64,000 nt of DNA from Candidatus Cloacimonadales bacterium (GTDB taxonomy: Bacteria; Cloacimonadota; Cloacimonadia; Cloacimonadales; JAIOQZ01). A model generated the notes under the pieces. It was not told where the DNA came from, did no database searches, and saw only the letters and a list, made by a program, of their open reading frames with translations. The stretch is from positions 1,728,001 to 1,792,000 of the forward strand of contig CAXXTU010000002.1 of the NCBI GenBank assembly GCA_963662655.2. The letters run 5' to 3'. Positions 5,588 to 30,375 of this stretch are shown here, piece by piece. Position 1 is the first letter of the stretch; every line of letters starts with the position of its first letter. The translations under genes were made by a program, and so were the position numbers.

Positions 5588-5615
5588 TTGACATAGCGCT
5601 CCTTTTTCGTACATT
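5588..5615 (+). promoter_or_regulatory. Putative sigma70 promoter of the terS-terL-portal operon
   Basis: TTGACA (5588-5593), 16 nt, TACATT (5610-5615); very AT-rich UP-like tract upstream. Confidence 0.6.
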
Positions 5616-5633
5616 CATACGCGGAGGGTGTAT

Positions 5634-6056
5634 ATGTCAGAAAAGAAAGCAGTCGAATTCGATCCCAATCTTCATCCGCATCTGGTGTATCTATATCGCG
5701 ACCGCGGGTACACGCAGAAGAAGATCGCTGAAGCTCTTGAGATCAGTGTTGGGCAATTGATGAGCTGGATCAGGATGTATCCTCGGGTCAAGCAGGCTTA
5801 TCAGATTGTTCCGGAGAAAATGGACATCGTCATCGAGGAAGCGCTCAAGAAGATGATGGATGGCTACGAGAAGAAAGAAACCATCGAGACGTACAAGACG
5901 AACAAGGAGGGTCAGGAGGAGCTTGTGGAGCGCAAGGTCACGACAAAGCACGTCGATGGTAACCCAACTGCGCTGAAGATATGGGTGGAACGCTTCCTCA
6001 AGGACAACGACGAGGACTTCGGCGAGGACTACGAAGAGGCGGAGTTTTCCGAGTGA
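5634..6056 (+). CDS. Phage terminase small subunit-like protein (HTH)
   Basis: N-terminal HTH (GYTQKKIAEALEIS..QL..W), then IEEAL..MMDGYE..ET...TKHV.GNPTAL..W pattern seen in TerS proteins; directly upstream of and overlapping terL. Confidence 0.75.
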   Translation: MSEKKAVEFDPNLHPHLVYLYRDRGYTQKKIAEALEISVGQLMSWIRMYPRVKQAYQIVPEKMDIVIEEALKKMMDGYEKKETIETYKTNKEGQEELVERKVTTKHVDGNPTALKIWVERFLKDNDEDFGEDYEEAEFSE

Positions 6057-7288
6057 ACCTGAGGCTCCGGCGCAAGGATTTCCTCCCCCACCAGTGGGAA
6101 TTCCTGACCAGCGAGAATCCGATCAAGGCGCTGGTTTCCGGATTCGGCGGCGGCAAGACGCATGTGTTCTTGCGGGAAACGCTGTTGAACCACCTCTTCA
6201 TGAGAAACCGCAGGGGAAAATCCAACGGCTGGATTGTGTATCCCACCTACGCATTGGCAGAAGAGCTGTTCTGCGAACCATTCCAGGAGCTGCTTCGCAA
6301 GTACCGTATCCGCTTTGATTATAAGGCAACTCGACTTCGCTTCGAGAGCAAGTACGGCGTGATCCGCGTCTACCAATTGCAAACACCTGCGCGCATGGTG
6401 GGGAGCGAACTGACCTACATCGGTTTCGACGAGTTCGACATCGGTAGCTACAAGAATTGCGAAATCGCCTATCAGAAGGCGATCGGGCGACTCAGAGGCT
6501 GCGAGAACGCCAGGCTGTACATTGTAACAACGCCGGAAGGCTTCCATTATACCTACAAACTCTTCAAAGAGGAAGGGGCGGCCAAACATCTCATACAAGC
6601 AAAGACAACTGATAATCCCCACCTTCCGGCGAGTTACATCCACTACCTGAGAAGCCAGTACGACGAGAACCTCCTCAGGCGCTACATGAACGGGGAGTTC
6701 GTCAACCTGAACACCGCGCAGGCGTACTACAACTTCGAGCGTGAGCGGCACGTGAAAGAGGTCGAATGCACGTACGCGCCGGAATACTACGTCGGCATGG
6801 ATTTCAACATCGACCCGATGACGGCGGTGGTCGGCGTGTTCCGCGACGACAGGTATGAGGTATTGAACGAGTTCTGGCTCAAGAACAGCAACACCGAACG
6901 CATGTGCAAGGTTATATCGCAGGACTTTGATCCGAACCGGATCGTCGTGTACCCGGACATGACGGGCATCAAGCGTTCCACCAGCGCCGCGGTGGGACTC
7001 ACGGACATCAAGATTCTCAAATCGAACGGATTCCGCGTCAAAGCGACACGCAACCCGCTGGTGAGAGACCGCATCAACGCGGTCAACAACGCGCTCGCGA
7101 AAGGCAAGCTCCTGATCCATCCGCGATGCAGGCACCTCATCCGCGACCTCGAGCAGGTCAGTCGCGACAAGCACGGCGAGCTGGACAAGTCCAGCCCCGA
7201 TTTGACCCACATATCCGACGCGATGGGATATGCGGTCTGGAACCTGTTTCCCATCGTCAGTCAACCCGACTGGCGGACATCAGCATAA
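6053..7288 (+). CDS. Phage terminase large subunit (ATPase + RNase H-like nuclease)
   Basis: FLPHQ adenine-binding motif, SGFGGGKT Walker A, IGFDE Walker B, TTPEG motif III, VGMDFN and HISDAMGY nuclease acidic residues. GTG start overlaps the terS TGA (GTGA) with a GGAG RBS; the ORF-track start 5981 is probably too long. Confidence 0.92.
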   Translation: MNLRLRRKDFLPHQWEFLTSENPIKALVSGFGGGKTHVFLRETLLNHLFMRNRRGKSNGWIVYPTYALAEELFCEPFQELLRKYRIRFDYKATRLRFESKYGVIRVYQLQTPARMVGSELTYIGFDEFDIGSYKNCEIAYQKAIGRLRGCENARLYIVTTPEGFHYTYKLFKEEGAAKHLIQAKTTDNPHLPASYIHYLRSQYDENLLRRYMNGEFVNLNTAQAYYNFERERHVKEVECTYAPEYYVGMDFNIDPMTAVVGVFRDDRYEVLNEFWLKNSNTERMCKVISQDFDPNRIVVYPDMTGIKRSTSAAVGLTDIKILKSNGFRVKATRNPLVRDRINAVNNALAKGKLLIHPRCRHLIRDLEQVSRDKHGELDKSSPDLTHISDAMGYAVWNLFPIVSQPDWRTSA

Positions 7289-7306
7289 CAAAAAGGAGAG
7301 GCATGA

Positions 7307-8683
7307 ATGGAAACGATGATCAGAAACATGCAACAGGCTTCGCGCTGGAACGAAGACATCCAGCGCAGGCTGCGCACGAGAAAGTACCTGGATTATTACC
7401 GCAACCGGTGCAAGGAATACATCGCGGAGCGGATCGACAGCATGGTCGATGGCGAAGAGGCGAAGGAGCTCAAGAAGTACATCGAGCACGACAACATCAC
7501 CGAGCGTTTCGTCGATGAGATCAGCCTGGTCTTCGCCGAGAAGGTGAAAATCACCGCGAGGCGAAGAAAGCCGGACGGCTCGCTCGTCGAAGACGCGGAA
7601 GCCCAGAAGGAGATCGAGCGGCTGCTGCGGCAGACCCGGTTCCAGGTCACAATGAAAGAGGTTGAACGCCTCACCAAGCTCATCTTCGACGTCGCCGTAC
7701 TGCCGCAGGTTCGCGACGGCAAGGTAGAGCTGGATATCATTACCGGGGACAAGGCGTTCGTAATCCAGCAGATCAAGAACACGGTCAAGGCCGAGCAGTT
7801 CTATTATCAGGTCGGACTCAGGGAAAATACCGCGCTCGCGGAACGCGTAGATATCTTCCACTTCTGGACGGCTGATGGACGCAAATACCAGTGCGAGATC
7901 ATGGCCAACGGTCAGCCGGACCCGCAGAGCGTCACCCATCTCAACCACATTGCGTATCCGAACATGCCGGTCGTCATGTTCCGCAACTATCTCCCCATCG
8001 ATACCTTCTGGTTCGACGGCGAAAACGCCATCGTTGAGAAGAATATCGCCATCGATCTCAAACGCACCGACCTCGCCATGGCCGAGGCCTACAACATACC
8101 GCAGCTCTTCACAACAGGCACGCGCGAGAATCAGGACATGAAAAAGGGCCGCACCTTCAAGATCGATATCCCACGCAACGACATGGGAGAAGCCGTAGGA
8201 GATGCCAAGTATCTCTCTCCCAACGAACCGCTGAAGGAACTGAACGAGATGATTAACAGCCGCATCGAGCAACTCGGGCTTTCAAAGGGTCTCTCCAAAT
8301 CGCTGATAAGCGGGACGACGGTTTCCTCCGGCTACGCGCTTGCGCTGTCGAAATACGAGATCGTCGAGAGAAACCGCAGACAGCGCGACTATTACTACGA
8401 TTCCGTTCTGGAACTGGTCGAAAACATGATCATTACCGCGAATCGGGGACTTGGGTGGGAAATCCCGGAAGACCTGGTTCTCGGAGTCGATTTCGGGGAA
8501 ATCCGCTTCGGCGTTTCGGATCAGGAGAAGGAAGAAATCCGTCAGATGAAGCTTCAAAACGGCACGATCTCGCGCATCGATATCATGCTGGAAGACAATC
8601 CCGAACTGGATCGCGATATGGCGATCGAACAAGCGACACGCATCGATTCCGAAAACCTGCGATTCGCACAGACAGCTTCGTAA
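7307..8683 (+). CDS. Phage portal protein (SPP1 gp6-like)
   Basis: 458 aa directly after terL; LDYY, NITERFVD, PVVMFRN, SSGYAL, GTISR motifs characteristic of portals; AGGAGAGG RBS. Confidence 0.75.
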   Translation: METMIRNMQQASRWNEDIQRRLRTRKYLDYYRNRCKEYIAERIDSMVDGEEAKELKKYIEHDNITERFVDEISLVFAEKVKITARRRKPDGSLVEDAEAQKEIERLLRQTRFQVTMKEVERLTKLIFDVAVLPQVRDGKVELDIITGDKAFVIQQIKNTVKAEQFYYQVGLRENTALAERVDIFHFWTADGRKYQCEIMANGQPDPQSVTHLNHIAYPNMPVVMFRNYLPIDTFWFDGENAIVEKNIAIDLKRTDLAMAEAYNIPQLFTTGTRENQDMKKGRTFKIDIPRNDMGEAVGDAKYLSPNEPLKELNEMINSRIEQLGLSKGLSKSLISGTTVSSGYALALSKYEIVERNRRQRDYYYDSVLELVENMIITANRGLGWEIPEDLVLGVDFGEIRFGVSDQEKEEIRQMKLQNGTISRIDIMLEDNPELDRDMAIEQATRIDSENLRFAQTAS

Positions 8684-8697
8684 CAATAGCAATCTCA

Positions 8698-9091
8698 GGC
8701 ATGAGCAGATTCGTTCGATCTGCCATGAAGACGGGGTGTTACACGTCTAATTTCGGCTTTCGCATAGCGGAAACGAAATCACGAGCGTTGTGATTTCATG
8801 CAATGAAATCATGTTAGCGGATTTTCGGCTTTCGCATAGCGGAAACGAAATCACGAGCGTTGTGATTTCATGCATTGAAATCATGTTAGCGGATTTTCGG
8901 CTTTCGCATAGCGGAAACGAAATCACGAGCGTTGTGATTTCATGCATTGAAATCATGTTAGCGGATTTTCGGCTTTCGCATAGCGGAAACGAATACTTGA
9001 GCGTAAGCCTTTCGCTACGCGAAAGGCGAAAGCGCATAATTAGACGTGTTATATCCCCTTCTCAGGGTAGATCGGGCGAAGATGCCATGCC
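8698..9091 (+). repeat. Dispersed hairpin element copy B, loop expanded by a tandem array
   Basis: ggcatg-A-gca-GA-ttcgttcgatc...ggtgtta-cacgtctaatt [array] aattagacgtg-ttatatcc...gatcgggcgaa-GA-tgc-catgcc. Confidence 0.88.
8751..8993. repeat. 72-bp tandem repeat, 3 full units plus a 27-bp partial, each unit built from short palindromes
   Basis: Units start at 8751, 8823, 8895, 8967: tttcggctttcgcatagcggaaacgaaatcacgagcgttgtgatttcatgcaWtgaaatcatgttagcggat; one substitution among units. Confidence 0.95.
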
Positions 9092-14795: not shown

Positions 14796-15335
14796 ATGAA
14801 ATGGATACTGGCAGGATTGTTGTGCCTTCTTGCGTTAACTTCTCTATTCACGGAAACGATGGTCGTCCATACACAGGAGCAAGATTACTCGTTCGATGTC
14901 GATGATGTTAACATCATTACCATATTTCACGATACCAATATTCTGTCGATCAACACACCGGACGGCGACTTCGATTTTCACATGCTGGACGACATCATAT
15001 CGATCGATTTCGAGGGAACCGCGGTTGATCCCGGACTCGAAGAGATCGGCCAGCACGTCCCCATTCAGTTCTTGAAGAACTATCCGAATCCATTCAATCC
15101 CGAGACAGCCATCCGTTTTTCCACGGGTGTCAGCGCGAAAGTGAACCTCACGATATACAATGTGAAGGGGCAGAAGGTGAAGACGCTGATCAACGAACGC
15201 CTCGACCAGGGAGAGCACTCGATCAAATGGCAGGGAACGGATGAAGTGGGAAAGAAAGTCGGTGGAGGGAACTATTTTTATCGGTTGAAAGTCGGTGATG
15301 AAGTAAAAACTCGTAAAATGCTGCTGCTGAAGTAG
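14796..15335 (+). CDS. Small secreted protein with FlgD/T9SS-like C-terminal sorting domain
   Basis: NYPNPFNPET.I.F...IYNVKGQKVKTL...W.G.D..G..V..G.YFYRL...KMLLLK. Confidence 0.85.
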   Translation: MKWILAGLLCLLALTSLFTETMVVHTQEQDYSFDVDDVNIITIFHDTNILSINTPDGDFDFHMLDDIISIDFEGTAVDPGLEEIGQHVPIQFLKNYPNPFNPETAIRFSTGVSAKVNLTIYNVKGQKVKTLINERLDQGEHSIKWQGTDEVGKKVGGGNYFYRLKVGDEVKTRKMLLLK

Positions 15336-26796: not shown

Positions 26797-29700
26797 ATGA
26801 GAAAAACGCTTTCATTTTTGACGCTTTTTGCGCTGGTATTGCCCATGCTGGCAATAGCGCTGAACGGAGACCCCAAGAGTTGGGATTCGAATGATTTCAT
26901 CGGCTTCGACCAGATTGGCGACAGCGATTTTGCGGATATCTCGTCAACGTATGCGCGAATCGAGGATGGCAGACTCTACTACCGCATCACGTTTGTGAAT
27001 ATGTCGCAGCGTAGCGATAACCGAATGACGGGCGACAGATTTGCCGACTCCGATGCAAGCTTGTCGCTGATGATAACGGATAACGCCCTGACTCAGGAAC
27101 TCAGTGTTCCGCTGTCGGATATCACGGTAAGAAACGGGCAATATCACTCGGTCAGAACGCCTCAGAACAACATGCTCGAGATCGAAATGCCGTGGAGCGG
27201 ATCAAGCAGCACTGAAACCGTTCGCTTCGATTGCTGCATTGAGCATGACGGCCGGATCGTCGAAAAGTTCACCGATCCATTGACCGATAGCGGTCGAGGT
27301 GGATCGCGCGGAGGCAATGCTGCGTTCGTTCATCACGGTAACCAGGGACTGACCTATACCGAGGTGTTTTACGGACAGTACCCGCAGGAAACCAGCGGAT
27401 TCGACGAGGTGCTGGAAGTCCACCAGGCAACGGGCATACCCGGTAATTTCCACATGTCTGGCACCCTGATGCCTGCCGCCGAATGGCACAATCCGGAGTT
27501 CAACGACTGGCTGGTAAACGGGGTCGAGAACGGCTACTGCGCCATGCTCTCATCTGCATTGGGACAGCACATCATGCCGTTCGTTCAGAATGAGATGAAC
27601 AACTGGGCCGTATCGGTCGAGAGCGATATGGTAGCGTACCGCTACGGATACGAACCGCATGTCGCCTGGGTTCCCGAACGCGTTTGGCTGAACCCGGGAG
27701 AATATCCCGAAGCCGGCGTTATTGACTGGCTTGGCGATAACTGGGTCCAGCATGGCGTCAATGCCGTGATCCTGGACGATAGCCCGCACCTCTGGTCCGG
27801 CGACAACCATAAAATCCACTGGATGAACAACAATCAGGGTATCACCCTCCGCTGCATACCCATCGATAACGAGTTCGTCGGATATATGCATTACGACGCA
27901 GGTAGCGCCATGAACCGCATCAACAGCACCGGCCAGTACGGAATCTGCGTTTACGGTACCGACTGGGAAGTGGCGGCCGAGATGAACGAACATCACGACT
28001 CCTCCTTCCTGGACAACTACGAAAGCGTCCTCTGGTACTGCCACGACAACTACCCTGCAGTCAATATCTGGGCGTTGGATTCCGCCATCAACAACAGCGA
28101 TTTCAACGGAAACGGCATCGACATCACGCCCGGAACGTACGGCCTTTGCGGAGGCGGGGACGGCTATGGCGGAAGCAACAACTCCTGGTACACCAACTGG
28201 GCGGGAACGGGATCGCACTCCGATCAGCACAGCCCACAATGGAACTACGGAACCGTATGGAACAACGCCTACGAAAACATCATGGCGAGCCCGGACAATA
28301 CCCTCTCGCAGCTCGCGTGGTATGTGCTTATGATCAACCTTCACGAAACCGCGTGGCACACAAGTGGAGAAATCGCAGACTGGGAGCACCGCTACTCGGC
28401 ACACATGAAGAACGCTAACGTTTACGCGGAAGCGTCTCGCTGGGCCAATGGGGACTACGAGCATACATCGGCGGCCTATCTCTCCGATATCGACAGAGAC
28501 GGCGTTGACGAGTTGGTGATGCACAACGATAAAATCTTTGCCGTTTTCGAATCGATCGGAGGACGCGCCCAGTGGATGTTCTGCAAAGACGGCAACGGAA
28601 ACGCTACATCCGTGGTCGGATCAGACGTAGCATACTACTCGGAAACGGACGGCGATTACAACGAAGGCTCCAGCAACCACGTCGCGGCTTTCTCGGATGT
28701 ATCGCCCAACTACCAGCACAGCCTGTACGCTTTCGATATTCTTCAGGGAGAAGGCGACCAGTTGATCGTTACTTTCACACATGAAGGAGTCTTCCGTTAT
28801 TGCACCCTCGATACAGGCAACAGTTACATCGATGTGAGCAACACTATCAATACCGGCGACCTCTACACCAAATCCGGCTGGACACCCGATCTGCTGGACA
28901 TTATTTGGTCCGGTAAATCACATATCCAACGCATGTGGGGAGATGACGCCTCCTACGCGGGACGGCGCAACAGCGCTACCGGCGCAACGGCAGCTTACGT
29001 GTTGGGAACCGCCGGCGCTTCGCACAACGGAACGTTTGAGGGCACCCTCGTGATGGGTGATGAAATCAAGGGCAGCGGTACTTTCCGTTACTTCCTTTAC
29101 GCCGGCTATACTTCCGATCCTTACGACGAATACTACACCAAGGTTACCGAGCTGGACAACCTCGCCACCCAGCTTGCTGACGATATCCCGCCGCAGATCG
29201 TGAACAGCGCTGCATATCATGCGGGAAACAATGTACTTCAGATCGTCTTCAACGAAGACGTGAGCCAGGCAACGGCGGAGAACGCAGACAACTACTCACT
29301 CAACGGATTCAGCGGCACGTACGAGGTTAGTGACGTGATGCTCTCCCACAGCCGCAAGGTCACCTTATGGCTCGATGGCACAATCCAGCCCGGAGACTCC
29401 GGCAACGTCATCGTAAGCGGCGTGGAAGACCTCAACGGAAACGTCATTCAGAACGGAGCAAACCAGGCAGCTCTCACATCCATGGTCATGCCCCACCTGG
29501 TTGGCACGATGAATAGCTGGACCCCTTCGAACCTCGACTACGATTTTGAAATCGTGGCAAACGGTCTGTGGAAACTCACGACCACCCTTCCGGCAGGATC
29601 CAATGAGTACAAGGTGATCGAATCCAACGATTGGGACAGTAACGACTGGCCGTCGGAGAACCAGATCATCGAGCTCGACGTCGATACGGAAATTACTTTC

Positions 29701-30375
29701 TGGGCGAACTGCGGGATGATGCCTCAGGTGAAATCGGGTGACGAATACGTTTGCCACAGCCCCAATCCACCGACTGTGGTCGGAGATTTCCTTTCCGAGA
29801 TCGGCGGTACCGACTGGAACCAGGAAACGACACTTACAAGCATGAACGACAACGGAACCGACGGTGACGAAGCTGCCGGAGACGGTCGTTTCAGCCTTCT
29901 GGTGAACATTCCAGGCGGCGATTACGAGTTCAAGGTAGTCCTCAATAACAACTGGGATCAGAACACATCCGGAAATGTAAACCTCCACATACCTTCGGCA
30001 GGATCGGAAGTGCTTTTCGTATACGAGATGTTCCAGAACCTTGTGTTCGTAAATGTTTTCAATGATGTTACGGAAGATCAGGCTGGCGATGTACCGGCGA
30101 TCCCGACAATCCAGTCTGTTTACCCGAATCCATTCAATCCGGACGTGAACATACGTTTCTCGCTTCCACACTCAGCGCATGTGGAAATCGACGTGTACAA
30201 CGTTGTTGGCCAGAAGGTTAAGAAACTCGTCAACGACATGATGGACGCAGGTAAACACAGCATTGTATGGCATGGCGATACCAATGAAGGGAAAACGTCA
30301 TCGTCCGGCGTGTATTTCTTCGTGTTGAAGACAGGCGACCAGAAATATGTGAAACGGGCGGTCATGATAAAATAG
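26797..30375 (+). CDS. Secreted multidomain GH57-like alpha-glucan-active enzyme with starch-binding-like modules and FlgD/T9SS-like CTD
   Basis: HHGNQ (variant of HxHQP), WVPERVW nucleophile, GTDWE acid/base; VG....W...YE(Y/F)KV modules; YPNPFNP C-terminus. Confidence 0.8.
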   Translation: MRKTLSFLTLFALVLPMLAIALNGDPKSWDSNDFIGFDQIGDSDFADISSTYARIEDGRLYYRITFVNMSQRSDNRMTGDRFADSDASLSLMITDNALTQELSVPLSDITVRNGQYHSVRTPQNNMLEIEMPWSGSSSTETVRFDCCIEHDGRIVEKFTDPLTDSGRGGSRGGNAAFVHHGNQGLTYTEVFYGQYPQETSGFDEVLEVHQATGIPGNFHMSGTLMPAAEWHNPEFNDWLVNGVENGYCAMLSSALGQHIMPFVQNEMNNWAVSVESDMVAYRYGYEPHVAWVPERVWLNPGEYPEAGVIDWLGDNWVQHGVNAVILDDSPHLWSGDNHKIHWMNNNQGITLRCIPIDNEFVGYMHYDAGSAMNRINSTGQYGICVYGTDWEVAAEMNEHHDSSFLDNYESVLWYCHDNYPAVNIWALDSAINNSDFNGNGIDITPGTYGLCGGGDGYGGSNNSWYTNWAGTGSHSDQHSPQWNYGTVWNNAYENIMASPDNTLSQLAWYVLMINLHETAWHTSGEIADWEHRYSAHMKNANVYAEASRWANGDYEHTSAAYLSDIDRDGVDELVMHNDKIFAVFESIGGRAQWMFCKDGNGNATSVVGSDVAYYSETDGDYNEGSSNHVAAFSDVSPNYQHSLYAFDILQGEGDQLIVTFTHEGVFRYCTLDTGNSYIDVSNTINTGDLYTKSGWTPDLLDIIWSGKSHIQRMWGDDASYAGRRNSATGATAAYVLGTAGASHNGTFEGTLVMGDEIKGSGTFRYFLYAGYTSDPYDEYYTKVTELDNLATQLADDIPPQIVNSAAYHAGNNVLQIVFNEDVSQATAENADNYSLNGFSGTYEVSDVMLSHSRKVTLWLDGTIQPGDSGNVIVSGVEDLNGNVIQNGANQAALTSMVMPHLVGTMNSWTPSNLDYDFEIVANGLWKLTTTLPAGSNEYKVIESNDWDSNDWPSENQIIELDVDTEITFWANCGMMPQVKSGDEYVCHSPNPPTVVGDFLSEIGGTDWNQETTLTSMNDNGTDGDEAAGDGRFSLLVNIPGGDYEFKVVLNNNWDQNTSGNVNLHIPSAGSEVLFVYEMFQNLVFVNVFNDVTEDQAGDVPAIPTIQSVYPNPFNPDVNIRFSLPHSAHVEIDVYNVVGQKVKKLVNDMMDAGKHSIVWHGDTNEGKTSSSGVYFFVLKTGDQKYVKRAVMIK

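Follow-up and report, generated by a model that had tools for sequence, protein, structure and literature searches.

The packaging operon and its surroundings

The window analysed here, meaning the whole stretch of 64,000 nucleotides at C2:1,728,001-1,792,000 of a Candidatus Cloacimonadales genome (G000; 3.81 Mb, two contigs, 99% complete), carries a compact operon of three phage-type genes encoding the small terminase TerS, the large terminase TerL and a portal protein, which are considered here as one part of a candidate gene transfer agent (GTA). The comparison covers a family of eight genomes in four genera, namely g1 (G000 and G001-G003), g2 (G004 and G007), g3 (G005) and g4 (G006). The features of the operon, and those of a partner locus elsewhere on the chromosome, are collected in Table 1.

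A preliminary description of the window had seen an intact operon of host-like composition with clean host boundaries, and this picture holds. All three genes are full length with zero internal stops, GGAGG precedes terS, and the GTG start codon of terL overlaps the terS stop as GTGA. The catalytic residues of TerL are likewise intact: Walker A reads GFGGGKT at residues 30-36, and D126/E127 (Walker B) and the nuclease aspartates D250, D302 and D389 are invariant in 7/7 aligned TerLs. The GC content at third codon positions (GC3) of the module genes, 0.70-0.77, falls at the 77th-98th percentile among 2106 open reading frames (ORFs) of the genome. The left flank is an ABC transporter gene, and on the right lie a 72-bp repeat and a lipoprotein gene. 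Copies of this repeat, which we take to be REP-like, occur at 18 further places in the genome (74-88% alike), and it is missing between the portal and lipoprotein genes in G001 and G003. The suggestion that the operon has its own promoter fared less evenly, since TTGACA-16-TACATT as a consensus match is at chance level (2 found, 2.7 expected), but both hexamers are invariant in 3/3 congeners (G000, G001 and G003), with a variable spacer.

TerL is the sole Terminase_6N match in the G000 genome, and neither terL nor the portal gene has a second copy there. Its nearest cultured relatives are those of Dhillonvirus-type coliphages such as HK578, at 35% identity, and it would probably package by the headful route. 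PDB sequence searches with the portal and TerL gave zero matches, and the identity of the portal was confirmed by fold instead: its AlphaFold model (18-sequence alignment, pLDDT 76) matches solved portals, including those of 80alpha, SPP1 and T7, with a best Foldseek E of 3e-12.

No integrase, capsid, tail or lysis family was matched among the 51 other ORFs of the window (E<=1e-5), and the longest repeat shared by the flanks is 12 bp. The earlier statement that no other phage genes are present is correct for the window and fails for the genome, and the label of orphan is wrong at that scale, because a cognate head-tail-lysis operon lies on the same chromosome.

Table 1. Features of the packaging operon (positions in the window) and of the partner locus in G000 (contig C2)
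Feature	Position	Strand	Basis
Putative sigma70-type promoter, TTGACA-16-TACATT	5588..5615	+	Hexamers kept in G000/G001/G003; similar site 5' of G006 terS
Shine-Dalgarno GGAGG, 5' of terS ATG	5623..5627	+	Sequence; kept in 3/3 congeners
terS, small terminase, 140 aa from ATG	5634..6056	+	phrog_309 E 3e-14; Pfam HTH_23 E 1e-5; N-terminal helix-turn-helix at about residues 14-50
terL, large terminase, 411 aa, ATPase and RNase H-like nuclease	6053..7288	+	Terminase_6N, Terminase_6C, phrog_2 E 2e-41
Portal protein, 458 aa	7307..8683	+	phrog_533 E 7e-6; predicted fold matches solved portals; host clade 97/95
72-bp tandem repeat x3.4, dispersed host intergenic repeat, outside the module	8751..8993	.	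Tandem repeat and genome copies
Scaffold	partner locus	-	phrog_194; PF06810 below cut-off
Major capsid	partner locus	-	Pfam GP7 E 5e-23; PDB sequence matches 3j4u (best), 3j40 (best) and 8cjz only
Putative decoration protein, 151 aa	partner locus	-	Gene position only
Putative adaptor, 245 aa	partner locus	-	Gene position only
Putative tail terminator, 150 aa	partner locus	-	Gene position only
Tail tube	partner locus	-	PF18906 below cut-off
Putative chaperone, 133 aa	partner locus	-	Gene position only
Tape measure, 361 aa	partner locus	-	
Putative tail-tip protein, 591 aa, LamG-like	partner locus	-	Position; resembles viral LamG-domain proteins (lead only)
149-aa protein	partner locus	-	After tail-tip gene
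Putative holin, 58 aa	partner locus	-	Gene position only
M15 endolysin	partner locus	-	Family match
TTGACA promoter of the partner operon	C2:1,354,128		5' of scaffold

The partner head-tail-lysis locus

Capsid and tail genes at other loci, for which the preliminary description had proposed a search, were found at C2:1,345,012-1,353,855 on the minus strand (locus L029:5013-13856), 380 kb from the packaging operon. They were traced through G004 and G007, in which the genes preceding the portal gene are orthologues of those at this place in G000. The locus is a scaffold-capsid-tail-lysis operon flanked by host genes, and no integrase or replication genes were found beside either locus. A tail usually measures about 0.15 nm per tape-measure residue, a rate at which 361 aa would correspond to a tail of around 50 nm. 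No tail sheath (PF04984) was matched in any of the five family genomes searched, while control genomes including B. subtilis were positive.

A TTGACA promoter stands 5' of the scaffold gene in the family genomes examined and was not seen in 3/3 loci of related phages (L160, L166 and L169, of which shorter stretches were read). By-eye inspection gave no clear operator common to the two promoters. The conserved scaffold 5' leader (L029:13,900-14,070, minus strand) and its homologues contain a CCGGTG/CACCG hairpin with TAAAAAATGA and a GCTGAC...CAGC element after it; the G000 leader carries an insertion. The hairpin-TAAAA leader is common to g1, g3, g4 and the related phages, and an Rfam search of 10 loci left the hairpin unmatched (one chance row, E 0.98).

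The three genes of the window are probably the DNA-packing locus of a phage kept by a Cloacimonadales family, which with the second locus would build GTA-like particles loaded with host DNA. Of the interpretations first offered, a domesticated module forming one locus of a multi-locus GTA-like system is the one borne out by the partner locus, the family-wide occurrence, the purifying selection and a portal tree that fits the host tree. A stand-alone device for hijacking packaging and an anti-phage decoy, both proposed at the same time, are less favoured, since cognate capsid, tail and lysis genes are kept by the host itself. Any particles are likely to be small, tailed and non-contractile. In the mechanism envisaged, the two promoters would fire in a subpopulation of cells and the portal would nucleate a procapsid together with scaffold and capsid protein. 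Without a replicated element genome, TerS and TerL would then cut and load chromosomal DNA by headfuls, with loose or locally biased starts. A short tail would be added, holin and endolysin would lyse the producer cell, and the particles would inject DNA into kin, to be followed by recombination.

The genome also contains several related prophage-like regions, marked by six Phage_Mu_F matches (C2 near 362,900; 502,600; 2,732,700; 3,297,700; 3,382,900; and C1 11,900), which we take to be Mu-like.

Conflict with such co-resident transposable prophages could provide another role for the system, which might divert, mis-package or out-compete their virion assembly, or be borrowed by them. At least one Phage_Mu_F match is present in 5/5 family genomes searched, and the putative holin, the endolysin, the end of the tape measure and a pair of 84-aa and 296-aa proteins have homologues in the prophage regions. 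The sharing may merely reflect a common host surface and cell wall, and the host has a full, separate head-tail-lysis set with no second copy of terL or portal, which leaves this role quite improbable.

The 84-aa and 296-aa pair, the latter leucine-rich repeat-like, ends the tail module in G001-G003 (L043:12646-13806, L044:12556-13704 and L045:6287-7444), and its homologues in G000 lie in prophage regions at C2:345,259-346,391 and 3,388,668. The endolysin of G006 is a different one, matching phrog_315 (L047:11194-11787), as against peptidase M15 in g1. A Neck1-type gene is carried by G006 and by G011, a genome outside the family, and by none of the g1 operons.

Distribution, selection and inheritance

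The capsid gene is present in 10/232 genomes of the phylum, including all eight of the family, with 89-91% identity within genus and 64-77% across genera. The portal was found in 9/232 phylum genomes and six of the eight family genomes, and a large terminase in seven, as type A in G000, G001, G003 and G006 and as type B in G004, G007 and G005 (cut by a contig end in the last). Type B was missed by the phrog_2 and window-TerL queries and was recovered by reading the locus and by a separate search. In G002 (90% complete) no large terminase was found, and since its flanking MORN gene is missing too, this points to an assembly gap.

In two congeners TerL and portal are 81-83% identical to those of the window; the genes to the right of the module are the same there and those to the left differ. 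In g4 a convergent MORN gene stands beside the module. A distance of 0.38 Mb in G000, and of no less than 1.57 Mb in G001, separates the packaging locus from the head-tail locus. Genus g2 has a single contiguous locus of about 13 kb, which runs from the scaffold through the tail genes to the lysis candidate and two lipoproteins and then to terS, terL and portal. The packaging and head-tail loci are intact, each in single copy; they occur across the family and evolve under purifying selection. The gap between the lysis candidate and terS in g2 (L022:7123-7949, L023:6762-7587) is occupied by a pair of small lipoprotein-like genes that have a promoter-like site to themselves, one of the genes with a faint match to the Cor superinfection-exclusion protein (E 0.07). 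Homologous host genes of about 680 aa (38%) lie a few genes past the portal in G006 and directly 5' of the scaffold in G005 (L024:9197-11233, L046:5701-7752); they are a possible trace of a shared ancestral site, although a simple insertion does not account for their orientations.

More distant versions, partly phage-like, sit on short contigs of two genomes outside the family, G011 and G135. In the G011 element two tail-tube-like genes stand in tandem, the tape measure is longer and a DNA methyltransferase gene precedes terS (L048:3927-5862, L005); this is possibly a true prophage of the donor family. A second capsid match in G004 sits in a separate prophage-like region.

The ratio of nonsynonymous to synonymous substitution (dN/dS; pairwise Nei-Gojobori within genus, with saturated-dS rows excluded) is 0.06-0.16 for the three packaging genes (terS 0.08-0.16, terL 0.06-0.12, portal 0.06-0.11) and 0.03-0.05 for the capsid gene, ratios that are rough because dS is near saturation. 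Together with the capsid gene in 8/8 genomes and the right flank kept in g1, these values answer positively the proposal to look at conservation, synteny and selection. In a comparison of 287 ORFs from 400 kb of G001, 210 of which have a unique G000 orthologue, terL is more conserved than 75% of these host genes, portal than 73%, capsid than 94% and terS than only 18%. The synonymous difference (pS) of the module is 0.63-0.76, a range that spans the host median of 0.73.

These data bear on whether the operon is simply a decaying prophage remnant or an assembly artefact. The missing gene pair in G000, the missing Neck1-type gene in the g1 operon, and related elements with phage-like extra genes in G011 and G135 could be read in that way. 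A remnant or artefact is very improbable, given that frames are intact in four genera, dN/dS is far below 1, pS and GC3 resemble those of host genes, the flanks are conserved and contig depth is even.

The preliminary description had allowed for a locus confined to one strain or close to an intact phage. The genes occur in several genera, and the closest TerLs in IMG/VR are about 48% identical over their full length (among the best 80 of 599). With the still more remote cultured relatives, the dN/dS and the host-like pS, this rules out a recent prophage. The features of an inducible prophage, that is, a contiguous genome, integrase, att sites and replication genes, were not found. Phage satellites (PICI and kin) carry an integrase and a primase or replicase on a mobile island; none of these is in the window, and the right flank is the same across species.

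A mis-assembly at the 72-bp repeat, hiding the rest of a prophage, was also considered and is ruled out. In G001 and G003 the portal gene abuts the same lipoprotein gene with no prophage between, and on either side of the repeat there is even coverage, at a depth of 4-7, by Logan contigs of run X1 (possibly the source sample), which break at the repeat itself.

The four-marker host tree has the form (G011,(g2,(g3,(g4,g1)))), with inner family branches at 84-92% bootstrap. In the portal tree a clade supported at 97/95 unites the portals of the family with close, unplaced homologues and excludes phage portals, and the topology of this tree, (g2,(g1,g4)), is that of the host tree.

Several observations weigh against the GTA-like reading. 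The TerL tree, whose congruence with the host tree the preliminary description had proposed to test, does not resolve the g1+g4 clade, and since the family also has two TerL types, the terminase is not simply vertical. The trees of capsid and structural genes are poorly resolved between genera, and the tail tube tree joins g2+g3+g4 at 90/89, unlike the host tree. The module pS between G004 and G007, 0.39-0.81, mostly exceeds the local median of 0.64, and for this reason the module may have been exchanged between these lineages. The 84-aa and 296-aa pair, which follows the 149-aa gene in the three congeners, is missing from the G000 operon. The g2 element forms one locus in its entirety, and a single head might carry it. 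Finally, the system is described from the genes of only eight family genomes, which are mostly or all metagenome assemblies and, being related, are not independent.

Between the two close species G004 and G007 (L198-L217, L022, L023, L030, L031) the synonymous difference of neighbouring genes ranges from 0.08 to 0.81. This patchiness affects host as well as module genes, and such a mosaic is suggestive of frequent recombination.

Proposed origin from a phage family

When metagenomes were scanned with the portal alignment, 318 pattern matches led to 13 loci, of which seven were read. The phage loci L160, L162, L166 and L169 show an unbroken order with the portal, a gene of about 250 aa and the scaffold in a row; in L160 the order is terS-terL-portal-[81 aa]-[248 aa]-scaffold-capsid, and the 248-aa gene matches 'head morphogenesis'. 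This gene was not found at E<=0.001 in 5/5 host genomes searched (one row at E 0.045 elsewhere in G007), and the hosts break the phage gene order at exactly this one gene, between portal and scaffold. The metagenomic elements (L160, L162, L163, L166 and L169), considered viral from their gene content, resemble the host system in portal (36-40%), scaffold (32-36%), capsid (39%), TerL (up to 48%) and gene order; they differ in being contiguous, in having the head-morphogenesis gene of about 250 aa and in showing no TTGACA before the scaffold. Three TerL types stand beside homologous portals in this related phage group, and the TerL of L163 is 58% identical to that of g2.

The g2 order would be the circular permutation expected from a phage genome opened at the morphogenesis gene, with loss of the early region. 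A plausible history begins with a phage genome that became fixed in the family ancestor; the head-morphogenesis gene would be the point at which it was opened, and its early genes would have been lost. The permuted single locus would have been kept in g2 and split at the lysis-terS junction in the other genera, and the terminase pair would have been replaced at least once from the phage pool. Within one family, the candidate donor phages and opening point, a joined and a split state and two terminase types can all be seen.

That the head-morphogenesis gene was not found is also relevant to a role as a killer particle of the PBSX kind, in which host DNA is ballast and the particle acts as a bacteriocin against related strains with no gene delivery. 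The SPP1 counterpart of this gene aids ejection, and the tail of PBSX is contractile. The tail-end genes of the Cloacimonadales system differ between species, and PBSX itself packs 13.4-kb chromosomal fragments without injecting them and works as a tailocin (PMC12946183). Set against this, the contractile sheath typical of PBSX-like particles and R-type tailocins was not found in 5/5 genomes (PF04984), and the tail-tip genes are less conserved than those for capsid, portal and TerL, which fits selection on a DNA cargo. A killer particle is on balance unlikely, and a carrier of host DNA is preferred.

TerS and the choice of DNA

TerS bears a helix-turn-helix (HTH) at its N-terminus, with an HTH_23 match above cut-off in G000 and weaker HTH matches in G001, G003 and G006. 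The N-terminus is modelled as three helices (pLDDT 81-91), and a fold search with TerS gave zero matches at E<=0.001. The HTH evolves about three times faster than the core, still under purifying selection (dN/dS 0.14-0.31 vs 0.04-0.10; Fisher p 0.006-0.03, three non-independent pairs). The HTHs of phage TerS proteins are variable too, so that this fast change is no proof of relaxation. In g2 the gene at the terS position has no HTH match and is without about 33 N-terminal residues that its G005 homologue has. The G005 protein, named from its position, has one weak relative among 1.84 billion representatives and no family match.

In the parts of the descriptions available, GTA small terminases are without a DNA-binding domain (PMC6854486, PMC11841831, PMC12946183), and this TerS does not show that GTA-type hallmark. 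The TerS evidence is compatible with both random and pac-anchored packaging, and the idea of lateral transduction, raised in the preliminary description, stays open because TerS keeps its HTH.

In its strict form this idea is that TerS reads a pac site in or near its own gene and that successive headfuls are taken one way from this fixed locus, amounting to a permanent lateral transduction without a phage. The HTH is kept in g1 and g4 with dN/dS below 1, and in g1 the genes downstream of the operon are kept while the upstream neighbours vary. One Dhillonvirus, of the type that provides the nearest cultured TerLs, is reported in the accessible text to package by headfuls with a pac site (PMC13348001), and the P22 pac site is described as lying inside terS, with one-directional packaging (PMC8575938, available part). 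The speed at which the HTH changes, the truncated g2 gene and the terS sequence, in which no stretch of unusually low synonymous change was seen by eye, argue the other way. Moreover, no replication origin was found that would amplify the region, and cuts in terS would yield few particles per cell. Anchored packaging is accordingly a minority possibility, although a serious one.

A related and equally tentative proposal is that of a GTA lineage losing its packaging specificity, in which g2, without the DNA-binding helices of TerS, would pack randomly, while in g1 and g4 a pac-reading TerS would start at a fixed site and pack the same chromosome arm in ordered headfuls. If true, the host would own a form of lateral transduction that involves no phage life cycle, and the genera would make up a natural series on whether loss of the TerS HTH makes a GTA. 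The DNA of particles is predicted to differ in this respect, with flat coverage versus a step at terS.

Comparison with known systems

The following comparisons with described systems use the parts of the cited sources that were available. The Faecalibacterium FpGTA is similar in having two far-apart operons (about 125 kb there), kept across species, with terminase, portal, scaffold, capsid, tail and lysis genes (PMC12946183). It differs in that terS-terL-portal-scaffold-capsid form one operon and TerS has no DNA-binding domain, whereas here the break falls after the portal gene and before the scaffold, and TerS includes an HTH. For FpGTA the particles and their 9-kb cargo have been shown (PMC12946183), while the Cloacimonadales genes are compared with that system by description. 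In Brachyspira, BhGTA/VSH-1 has a single conserved terL outside the structural cluster, an earlier example of a terminase that looks orphan in the host of a GTA (PMC9662315); there only terL lies outside, with its role unvalidated, as opposed to a terS-terL-portal operon with its own promoter in another phylum, again compared by description (PMC9662315). Split GTAs therefore have precedent in FpGTA and in the lone terL of Brachyspira, and a cut between portal and scaffold was not met in the descriptions consulted.

The RcGTA-like elements of Alphaproteobacteria share a multi-locus organisation, vertical inheritance, the absence of replication genes, a headful terminase and lysis of the producer (PMC6854486, PMC11841831). 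RcGTA differs in a TerS without HTH and in packaging genes placed in the core cluster (PMC6854486, PMC11841831), while the capsid here is of Pfam GP7. The separation of packaging genes from capsid and the GP7 capsid do not fit membership of Rhodogtaviriformidae, judged without a direct alignment to RcGTA. PBSX of Bacillus subtilis is comparable as a conserved defective prophage that packs host DNA (PMC12946183) and differs from the present system, in which no sheath was found and the genes are split over two loci. In lateral transduction by P22 and the staphylococcal pac phages, the terminase acts on a chromosome-embedded terS locus, as it might here, but those are excising, replicating prophages (PMC8575938), and no integrase or replication genes were found near the loci described here.

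Six criteria have been given for GTA viriforms, namely virion proteins derived from caudoviricetes, endogenisation, often at several loci, mostly vertical inheritance, own genes not packaged whole, packing of mostly random host DNA, and delivery of this DNA (PMC9662315, available part). The first is reflected in the matches of TerS, TerL, portal, scaffold, capsid, tube, tape measure and endolysin, and the second in two distant loci with host flanks and no integrase in the window. Mostly vertical inheritance is indicated by the portal tree, the host-like pS and the capsid in 8/8 genomes, with the caveat of the replaced terminase and the TerL tree. Packaging of the own genes as a whole is precluded by distance in G000 and G001, and the g2 locus is contiguous. 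Because gene evidence covers three of the six, the system is treated as a candidate GTA and not as a filed member (PMC9662315). By gene content and inheritance it is a system that would work like a GTA, and it is classed neither as RcGTA-like nor as a prophage, satellite or R-type tailocin. The window probably holds the packaging locus of a new, independently domesticated GTA-like system.

A literature search, with most subscription journals and all supplements outside its coverage, gave no GTA report for Cloacimonadota/Cloacimonetes and no terminase-portal report. The candidate would be an independent domestication in a phylum without a GTA report in the literature searched. How widely GTAs occur and how they choose DNA are stated as open questions in PMC11841831. 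Only one sequence hallmark has been proposed for GTAs, the missing DNA-binding domain of TerS, and a TerS with an HTH challenges it.

Further observations

Elsewhere in the window, the genes at 14796-15335 and 26797-30375 encode proteins with FlgD_ig/Por_Secre_tail C-terminal sorting domains, and homologous ends are common in the flanking loci too. At C2:3,266,307-3,266,403 of G000, ARAGORN calls a 97-base tRNA whose four-base anticodon is unassigned and which may be tRNA-Sec.

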